Shown piece by piece: positions 12,001 to 15,000 of a DNA stretch of 64,000 nt (positions are counted from its first letter, which is position 1; every line of letters begins with the position of its first letter). Source of the stretch: Escherichia coli O127:H6 str. E2348/69 (lineage in GTDB: Bacteria; Pseudomonadota; Gammaproteobacteria; Enterobacterales; Enterobacteriaceae); NCBI RefSeq assembly GCF_000026545.1, contig NC_011601.1. One strand, 5' to 3'. Position numbers: made by a program.

Positions 12001-15000
12001 TGCGCGCCAGGCCAGCCATCTGGCGTTAAGTGCTTCCGAAACGGCGCAACGCGGCGGCAAAGTGGTGGATAACGTGGTGCAGACCATGCGCGATATCTCC
12101 ACCAGTTCGCAGAAAATCGCCGATATTATCAGCGTAATTGACGGCATTGCCTTCCAGACCAATATTCTGGCTTTGAACGCGGCGGTTGAGGCTGCGCGTG
12201 CGGGTGAGCAAGGGCGCGGTTTTGCGGTGGTCGCGGGAGAAGTGCGTAATCTGGCCCAGCGTAGCGCTCAGGCTGCTCGTGAAATTAAAAGCCTGATTGA
12301 AGACTCGGTGGGGAAAGTGGATGTTGGCTCTACGCTGGTCGAAAGCGCCGGGGAAACAATGGCGGAGATTGTCAGTGCCGTGACCCGCGTGACGGACATT
12401 ATGGGCGAAATTGCTTCTGCTTCTGATGAGCAGAGCCGTGGTATCGATCAGGTTGGCTTAGCGGTTGCTGAGATGGACCGGGTAACCCAACAAAACGCCG
12501 CGCTGGTGGAAGAATCTGCCGCTGCCGCCGCCGCGCTGGAAGAGCAGGCCAGTCGCCTGACCGAAGCAGTGGCAGTGTTCCGGATTCAGCAACAGCAGCA
12601 ACAGCAGCGTGAAACATCGGCTGTAGTAAAAACCGTGACGCCAGCTACGCCGCGTAAAATGGCCGTGGCAGATAGCAGCGAGAACTGGGAAACGTTTTAA
12701 CGTAATGATGCCGGATGAGTATTTCATCCGGCGTTTTTATTATTAAACCAGGAACAGTGAAATCGCCGGGATATATGTCACCAGCATTAGCATTAACAGT
12801 AGAGCCGCCAGTAGGGGCAGGGATTGTTTAAAGAAATTTCCCACCGAAACTTGCGTGATATTACATACCAGCAGCATCACGGTACCTACCGGTGGCGTGA
12901 ATGCGCCAATCGACAGGTTGAAGATCATGATGATGCCAAAATGCACCGGATCGATGCCAAAGTGTTCGACCACCGGTTTTAATAGTGGTACCAGGAGCAG
13001 CAAAATGGCGTTTCCTTCCAGAAACATCCCCAGCGTCAGTAGCAATATGTTGATAATCAACAGGAACATGTATTTGTTTTCGGTCAGCGAAGTCACAAAA
13101 TTCGCCACTGCGACACCAGCATGTTCCATTGAGAAAATCCATCCCAATGCGGCGCTGGCCATGATTACCAGCATCACCGATGCGGTTGCGCGTGCCGTTT
13201 CGCCCAATGCTTTGACGACATGAGAAATCCGCATTTCACGATAGATAAAAAAGCCAATCGCCAGCACGATTAGCACCGCTACTGCACCTGCTTCTGTTGG
13301 GGTGAAAATGTTAGCGCGAATACCACCCACCACAGCAAAAATGAGGAACAGCGCAGGCCAGGCCTGTCCCAGCGAGAACACCACCTCTTTGCACGTAGGC
13401 CAGCTTTCACGCGAGGGTTTAGCGTTAGTTTTGCGGGCGACAAGGTAGACGGTAAACATCAGTACGACTGCGCATAGCAAACCAGGTACCAGTCCGGCGA
13501 TAAACATTTTTCCGATAGAGACGTCGGCAACCAGACCGTAAATAATCAGGGCTATTCCAGGCGGTATGATCGGGGTGACTAACGAGCCACCAGCGGTAAT
13601 GGCGGCGGCAAACGCGCGGTTGTAGCCTTTACGCTCCATCTCCGGCACCATCATGCGCGACAGCATCGCCGCGTCAGCAAGGTTAGAGGCGCTGACGCCG
13701 CCCATCATGGTGCTGACGAGAATGTTTGCCACGCCCAGTCCGCCGCGCATTTTCCCCACCAGAACGTTGGCAATGTGCAGGATGCGTTCGGCAATGCCGG
13801 TGTAGCTCATTAGTGTGCCGAGCAAGATAAAAAACGGAATTGCCAGCAATGATGGGCTTTGCGTTGGCGCGATTAGTCTTTGCACGGCAATTTCAATCGG
13901 TACGCTGGAGAAGAATAAAAAGTAAGCGATGATGCCAATAAACATCGCCAGATAGACCCGAATGTTGAGAAACAAACAGACGATCATTAGCGGAATAATC
14001 AATAACCAACTCATTGCATTTTGTCTCCGCTATCGGATTGTTTTGTATCGTTTATTAACCAGTAGAGGGTATAAATAGCCGTTGCCAGTGCGCCGACAGG
14101 GACCGCCAGATCGATCCAGAACCAGGAAACCTTCAGAATTTGTGTCACTTTAAACTGCGCCATTTCGGCTAGTCGGTAGCCCAGCCAGGCCATATAAAGC
14201 AGCAGTGCGATGGAGAGAAGGGCGACCAGTACTGCAATAACACGCCTGAGTTTGCCTGGAAGCATCTCCATCAGGAAGGGAATGGTCAGGTGCGCCCTGT
14301 CACGTTCTGCCACCACTCCACCTAACATCACCACCCAAATCATCAGCATTCCCGACATTTCTTCTGTCCATTGAAGCGGTTGGCCGATGAAATAACGCAT
14401 AAATACCGCTCCAATTGTCACCACAACCAGAACGAATAGCGCAAAGGCAGCACTAAATTCTGCCACTTTGCCAAAAAGACGCATGAAACCTCCTGTTAGT
14501 GCGTGTCCTGCCTAAGAGAGATGAGGCAGGACGCTGAGCATTAATGCTTATTGCAGTTGCTGTTGAATGGTTTCGTACAGACCTGGTGTCCATTCCGGGA
14601 ATTGAGAGTAAACTTCGCGTGCTTTCTTCTGGAATGGTCCAGTATCGGGATAGATCACTTCGACGCCGGCTGCCTGCATGGTTTTCAACATTTCGGCATC
14701 ACGCTCAAGAGTGAGTTTCTGGCTATAGACACCCGCTTCATAGCCGGTCTGGTGGATCATCTCCAATTGTTCTGGTGAAAGGGTGCTAAAGAAGGCTTCA
14801 CCACCTATCCACACTGAGGTATTTGTCAGGTAGTTAACCATTGTCAGATATCTTGCCTGCTCATACAGTTTTTGCCCTTGCAGCACTGAAATTGGGTTTT
14901 CTACGCCGTCAATAACGCCCTGGGTTAATGCGGGATAAACTTCGCCTAATGGCATGGGAGTTGGTGTTGCCCCCATCGCCTGAATGGCTTTTATTTGCAT

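Follow-up and report, generated by a model that had tools for sequence, protein, structure and literature searches.

A close described counterpart of the element treated here is the C-terminal linker of the Escherichia coli chemoreceptor Tar, which, like that of the serine chemoreceptor Tsr, is an unstructured tether running from the receptor body to the NWETF pentapeptide and whose length, engineered from 22 to 46 amino acids (aa), sets the location of CheR (PMC10561060). Length variants of the Tar linker are also due to Li and Hazelbauer (2006), as cited in PMC10561060, and electron paramagnetic resonance work on Tar by Bartelli and Hazelbauer (2011), as cited in PMC7390727, describes the linker as disordered and as a tether for both CheR and CheB. 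In Tsr of strain K-12, conservation of the kinase-control domain ends with residue 517, after which comes a tail of 34 residues (PMC4692393); counted from I517, the K-12 tether measures 30 aa against 34 aa in Tar (PMC10561060). The element in question is a glutamine repeat at the start of this tether, encoded by the tsr gene in a 64,000-nucleotide stretch of E. coli O127:H6 str. E2348/69 (contig NC_011601.1), a stretch which is referred to below, at its full length, as the window. The Tar linker is rich in proline and has no glutamine run, and the changes engineered into it were made close to the pentapeptide; the Tsr variants occur naturally and concern the end of the tether next to the receptor body.

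Here, I show that the glutamine repeat is best read as an in-frame tandem repeat of 9 base pairs (bp) at the junction of I517 and the tether, in which the two-unit state is predominant and most likely ancestral, changes affect whole units, and the resulting length differences would be near-neutral; a probability of roughly 0.85 is attached to this reading. With the variable-number tandem repeat (VNTR) and minisatellite-like loci of bacterial coding regions, tsr shares identical head-to-tail units, whole-unit polymorphism and recurrence across backgrounds; unlike the usual VNTR loci, it has 1-4 units only and a distribution skewed to two alleles. With contingency loci and the eukaryotic CAG/polyglutamine loci it shares repeat-mediated length change and the use of CAG and CAA for glutamine, yet it shows no frameshift, a mixed and short CAG/CAA tract and no runaway expansion, the maximum seen being 13 glutamines. 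The repeat is accordingly described here as a low-copy, in-frame, VNTR-like locus, in all appearance an ordinary length polymorphism of the usual species allele; a literature search found no description of it as a typing locus.

The run consists of seven in-frame glutamine codons (CAG CAA CAG CAG CAA CAG CAG; Q518-Q524) preceded by F515-R516-I517. At 12587..12608, Tandem Repeats Finder (TRF) detects a perfect 9-bp unit, CAGCAACAG, in 2.4 copies with a 100% match; the same array can be written as CAG followed by two units of CAACAGCAG, which are identical also at synonymous sites, and it thus contains at least two adjacent identical units, as a VNTR does. An earlier, sequence-only reading of the window had described tsr as an open reading frame (ORF) of 554 aa with seven glutamines in alternating cag and caa codons, placed just ahead of the flexible tail that bears NWETF, the docking pentapeptide for CheR/CheB. 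The length of the ORF and the seven glutamines in frame hold, as does their location, which is the start of the CheR/CheB tether; strict alternation of the codons does not, the array being a repetition of a 9-bp unit. Because it is the longest single-amino-acid run among the window's ORFs of 150 aa or more, and because its copy number varies among strains by whole 9-bp units, the glutamine run is not a chance feature. Every allele read, from four glutamines (4Q) to thirteen (13Q), encodes a full-length Tsr ending in NWETF, and the frame is never broken since the unit is a multiple of three.

In a K-12 MG1655 derivative, tsr is 1656 bp long and encodes 551 aa, which is the length that the sequence-only reading had given for K-12; its run is CAG CAA CAG CAG, that is four glutamines, between flanking codons identical to those of the window, and the K-12 tail has been printed as IQQQQRETS... 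(PMC10561060). The gap of 3 aa equals exactly one CAACAGCAG unit and falls wholly within the glutamine repeat; over its full length, window Tsr differs from that of the K-12 derivative by five substitutions and the QQQ insertion. The K-12 protein, also named methyl-accepting chemotaxis protein I, is like the window protein in its btsT neighbour, its three Pfam domains and its NWETF end, and unlike it in having one CAACAGCAG unit (QQQ) fewer and a tether of 30 aa instead of 33. An equal repeat length in K-12 had been named as the outcome that would speak against an expansion in E2348/69; K-12 carries 4Q against 7Q. The proposal that the repeat had expanded by slippage survives in part, in that a one-unit difference is what slippage would give, while the direction it assumed is unsupported, K-12 having most likely contracted.

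The alleles were counted in complete E. coli genomes with two reciprocal BLAST queries. The first, 141 bp centred on the 7Q repeat of the window, matched 5,342 of 5,426 genomes: 4,056 at 95% identity or more, with the same span in 45 of the 45 matches sampled; 1,283 at 90-95%, where twelve of the sampled matches were 132 bp long and two exceeded the matched query span by 9 bp; and 3 at 80-90%, of which the one sampled was 18 bp longer. The second, the 132-bp 4Q sequence of K-12, gave 1,214 genomes at 95% or more, 4,055 at 90-95% and 73 at 80-90%. Both queries agree on shares of about 76% for 7Q, about 23% for 4Q and 1.3% for 10Q, with about 3 genomes carrying 13Q (5,342 genomes). Alleles with 1, 2, 3 and 4 units, i.e. 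4Q, 7Q, 10Q and 13Q, were read directly and differ solely by inserted CAACAGCAG between the same flanks; population classes 9 bp apart amount to whole-unit differences in copy number among strains, as expected of a VNTR. A homologue search with the full-length Tsr protein agrees with the predominance of 7Q, for 118 of the 120 proteins listed have a 7-residue run, all of them being near-identical E. coli or Shigella sequences with no outgroup among the 120. The 4Q carriers sampled include, besides laboratory strains, many natural isolates (humans, dogs, cats, wastewater). At 99% identity or more over the 141 bp there are only 68 of the 5,342 genomes, so the local haplotype of the window is rare.

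Some further observations concern the same 3' end of tsr. No match to it was obtained in 84 of the 5,426 complete genomes, where the gene may be lost or disrupted, and three matches are located on plasmids. In SMS-3-5 and SCU-172, and in 6 of the 120 proteins, a CAG-to-CAT change interrupts the second unit of a 7-residue allele (QQQQQHQ, once QQQQQQH); such an interruption should lower slippage.

The check suggested in the sequence-only reading, an alignment of tsr alleles across strains, was run on 18 tsr genes with 104 variable sites, the genes being chosen, not random; it revealed recurrent variation in repeat number, with 4Q nested inside 7Q clades. In this alignment none of the deep tsr lineages sampled lacks 7Q (SMS-3-5, O157:H7, O111, ST131 and E2348/69), 4Q is found on K-12/B, on APEC O1/GPEC505, on L1PEag1 (within the E2348-like clade) and on E89, and 10Q occurs on at least two backgrounds. 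The 4Q gene of APEC O1 is 2 single-nucleotide polymorphisms (SNPs) from the 7Q gene of PEC1013, and APEC O1/GPEC505 taken together are 2-3 SNPs from that 7Q gene. When the genes are sorted by local 3' haplotype family, the REAS type is found with 4, 7 and 10 glutamines, the CACATCC type with 4, 10 and 13, and the K-12 type with 4 and 7. That each of three haplotype families holds two or three repeat numbers, and that a 4Q and a 7Q gene lie only 2 SNPs apart, is the homoplasy that marks a VNTR; the changes are therefore recurrent, and recombination alone is insufficient to account for them.

Outgroups were sought with a degenerate DNA pattern for a 14-residue Tsr stretch in a collection of genomes from 100,044 species. 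The scan returned four loci only, three in Escherichia and one in Kosakonia cowanii; no typical E. coli genome matched in that collection, though the window sequence fits the pattern. The tsr gene of Escherichia sp. E1V33 aligns with that of the window over 1665 bp at 87% identity without a gap and encodes a Tsr of 554 aa, and a second divergent Escherichia tsr is likewise gapless over the 758 bp available. In E. whittamii, CAG CAG ACG is followed by two CAACAGCAG units. Since 7Q is the majority allele, is present in all deep lineages and is matched by the outgroups in length or units, and since 4Q sits on at least three local haplotypes, the two-unit state (7Q, 554 aa) is most likely ancestral for E. 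coli, and the 4Q of K-12 would be a contraction. The true expansions are 10Q and 13Q, in strains other than E2348/69. Apart from the question of polarity, strain SCPM-O-B-8794 (NZ_JAATUR010000013.1), labelled E. coli, has a tsr 3' half 87% identical to that of E. coli and a tail of the E1V33 type; the strain probably belongs to a cryptic Escherichia clade in spite of its label.

As to the mechanism, replication slippage between the adjacent identical 9-bp copies would most simply account for the occasional gain or loss of a whole unit. Slippage from two units would yield n=1 (4 Gln, 551 aa), the form of K-12, B, APEC O1 and others, as well as n=3 (10 Gln) and n=4 (13 Gln). The frame being kept, only the length of the tether would change, and with it, slightly, the reach of CheR and CheB, which would probably leave the polymorphism close to neutral.

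The functional side of this reading depends on where the repeat lies. Because I517 is both the last conserved residue and the start of the tether, and because the run begins right after it, the repeat lies at the receptor-proximal base of a putatively disordered tether. At the other end, NWETF is a terminal pentapeptide of the xZxxZ form (family definition in PMC7390727), with 32 residues between I517 and N550; a non-conserved linker of about 30-35 residues is typical of the family. The computed tether lengths are 30, 33, 36 and 39 residues for 4Q, 7Q, 10Q and 13Q, respectively, and these natural tethers of 30-39 aa fall within the engineered Tar range of 22-46 aa; adaptation responses that could be analysed were obtained with each of the Tar tethers, of 22, 29, 34 and 46 aa (PMC10561060). 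The CheR peak of Tar shifts by 0.128 nm per residue, or 0.233 in an alternative fit, over an intercept of 6-7 nm (PMC10561060); three residues therefore correspond to about 0.4-0.7 nm. By analogy with Tar, a three-residue difference would probably have a small, near-neutral effect on Tsr. The remark in the sequence-only reading that linker length can influence the tethering of the adaptation enzymes likewise draws its support from Tar studies. The literature search returned papers on linker function and none on this glutamine-run polymorphism or comparing Tsr alleles, an absence which is no proof that the polymorphism is undescribed.

One competitor is the view that the K-12 4Q form is the reference or ancestral state, from which the E2348/69 lineage expanded by one unit via slippage. 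It draws on the gap to K-12 being exactly one unit, on the fact that expansions do occur at this repeat (10Q, 13Q), on units whose identity at synonymous sites implies that the array was once duplicated, and on distant Escherichia tails that have no perfect repeat. All this notwithstanding, it is disfavoured and very improbable: 7Q is about three times commoner than 4Q and occurs in all deep tsr lineages sampled, 4Q is nested inside 7Q clades (APEC O1 and PEC1013, 2 SNPs apart, being a case in point), E. whittamii already has two units, and the E1V33 Tsr is a gapless 554 aa. That the length differences stem from errors of assembly or sequencing in a low-complexity tract has a probability close to nil; short repeats can be miscalled in some technologies, a general concern with nothing specific to this locus, yet the length classes are discrete, exactly 9 bp apart in thousands of independent complete genomes, and consistent within lineages (APEC O1 and GPEC505 have the same protein), and the K-12 form is the published protein sequence (PMC10561060). 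The artefact was rejected on the discreteness of the classes and their consistency within lineages. Likewise rejected was a phase-variable contingency locus, the unit being 9 bp and in-frame, all alleles reading full-length and no on/off switch being present.

Two further explanations bear on how the alleles spread and persist. Under adaptive tuning, which is compatible with an origin by slippage, tethers of 30, 33, 36 and 39 aa would be maintained or repeatedly selected for CheR/CheB reach, and with it for the kinetics or precision of serine adaptation, according to niche. For Tar, the CheR concentration profile was found to move linearly with the length of the tether, which its authors tie to methylation-site geometry (PMC10561060); in tsr, identical changes in length are seen on more than one haplotype, and genes with the K-12-like local haplotype are almost all 4Q (1,019 genomes at 99% identity or more). 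Mutation bias alone predicts that recurrence equally well, however, the predicted three-residue shift is small beside the intercept found for Tar, and the matches sampled show no association with niche, isolates from humans, dogs, cattle, wastewater and birds occurring in both 4Q and 7Q; selection of this kind is thus improbable. A related claim, that the natural Tsr series (30, 33, 36 and 39 residues) could measurably tune CheR/CheB reach and the kinetics or precision of serine adaptation between lineages, with K-12 as an atypical short allele, is improbable. It is also unlikely that 4Q and 10Q reached unrelated strains through a few mutational events spread by homologous recombination of tsr 3' segments in place of repeated slippage. 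The alternative cassettes that flank tsr (TRAP transporter or lgoT downstream, btsT or hpaR upstream) and mosaic haplotypes, such as that of FDAARGOS1283 with its 3' end of the Z1323 type, would favour such exchange, while at least three families defined by flanking SNPs each hold two or three repeat numbers, and at least one change per family is needed.

Several points weigh against the preferred reading of a predominantly two-unit, most likely ancestral and near-neutral repeat. Its polarity depends on three Escherichia genomes outside E. coli; the degenerate-pattern scan of the 100,044-species collection brought up none from Salmonella, Citrobacter, E. albertii or E. fergusonii. E. whittamii, with two codons more than the 7Q allele, is no exact match to it, and the distant Escherichia tails (QQTQQRQHEALP...) are without a perfect repeat, so that their equal length could be coincidental; because of these tails, the array itself would have arisen by duplication earlier. 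Intragenic recombination does occur in tsr, the 3' end of FDAARGOS1283 being identical to the Z1323 type, and part of the allele sharing would be transfer rather than new mutation. The genome counts, finally, were inferred from BLAST identity bands and about 60 sampled matches per search, not from every genome read; rare variants of plus or minus 3 bp would be hidden in the 95-99% band, and the collection of complete genomes over-represents clinical and laboratory strains and is no random sample of the species.

The features of the tsr region are collected in Table 1.

Table 1. Coordinates of tsr and associated features in the window
Feature	Coordinates	Strand	Basis
tsr coding sequence, serine chemoreceptor, 554 aa + stop	11036..12700	+	ORF list
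Glutamine repeat Q518-Q524, CAG (CAACAGCAG)x2, copy-number-variable 9-bp in-frame tandem repeat	12587..12607	+	sequence + TRF
C-terminal tether, I517 to E549, 33 aa; non-conserved linker from kinase-control helix to pentapeptide	12584..12682	+	boundary from literature
NWETF pentapeptide	12683..12697	+	translation; role from PMC7390727, PMC4692393
Terminator-like hairpin and T-run, 13-pair stem with 6 G-C pairs, then TTTATTATTA	12707..12745	+	consensus scan, pattern match only
Sigma-28 (FliA)-like promoter, TAAAGTTT, 11 nucleotides, GCCGAAAA	10979..11005	+	read directly from sequence

The tsr gene of the window and the one annotated in E. coli E2348/69 are 100% identical; the translation ends in ...ENWETF before a TAA stop. 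Pfam places TarH at 1-176 (186 bits), HAMP at 217-263 and MCPsignal at 327-484 (210 bits), each scoring higher than its curated cut-off, in the order expected of a Tsr orthologue, namely a four-helix-bundle, Tar-type ligand-binding domain followed by HAMP and the MCP signalling domain. The btsT-yjiX-yjiA group adjoins tsr in both E2348/69 and K-12, and the RefSeq label of the identical gene is tsr. Window and K-12 Tsr agree, as far as a sequence comparison goes, at every one of the positions taken here to form the serine pocket (R64, N68, R69, R73, F151, F152 and T156) and the methylation sites (Q297, E304, Q311, E493 and E502). On all testable features, window Tsr is thus orthologous to K-12 Tsr and belongs to the pentapeptide-bearing chemoreceptors of the high-abundance type.

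The gene tsr is a class-3 flagellar gene, and the sigma-28 (FliA) consensus is TAAAGTTT-N11-GCCGATAA; the sigma-28-like promoter of the window lies about 30 nucleotides upstream of the tsr start codon, and a sigma-70 scan upstream of tsr gave no convincing promoter in that region. The terminator-like hairpin is placed directly 3' of the tsr stop codon. Downstream of tsr lies either a TRAP transporter (DctM/DctQ/DctP-like; 12743..14484 and beyond in the window), as in E2348/69, APEC O1 and others, or lgoT-lgoR, as in K-12, O157:H7, ST131 and SMS-3-5; K-12 thus differs from the window in having lgoT next to tsr. The gene directly upstream is btsT or hpaR, the latter in B, O111 and E89. Among the genomes compared, the type of flanking cassette was not seen to track repeat number.

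Tsr varies at other places too. Residue S548 (12677..12679), two positions before NWETF, is polymorphic, being S in the window, E in K-12 and G in O157, ST131 and SMS-3-5. A run of six alanines, A495-A500 (12518..12535; GCC GCT GCC GCC GCC GCG), lies between the methylation sites E493 and E502, with a 6-bp period detected by TRF at 12516..12534; it is reduced to 5 in strain SCU-172 and in protein P0105 (553 aa) and extended to 7 in protein P0108 (555 aa). A one-residue alanine indel would alter the helical register between E493 and E502 and may matter more functionally than the glutamine run. One E. coli Tsr variant, P0031, has 570 aa at 96% identity, normal termini and 7Q, which points to an internal 16-residue insertion or duplication elsewhere in the protein.

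To sum up, the repeat carries little broad biological weight, being a common allele of a well-studied gene that involves a one-unit indel in a non-conserved linker. What it does bring out is that the reference strain K-12 carries the minority allele: in roughly three of every four complete E. coli genomes the Tsr tether has 33 residues, near the 34 of Tar, and the argument linking a shorter Tsr tether to methylation geometry (PMC10561060) therefore holds for K-12-type alleles only. The natural 4Q/7Q/10Q/13Q alleles already supply the graded tether lengths with which the tethered-enzyme model could be tested in Tsr, and, if the tuning reading were true, quantitative chemotaxis models built on K-12 would rest on an atypical short allele.
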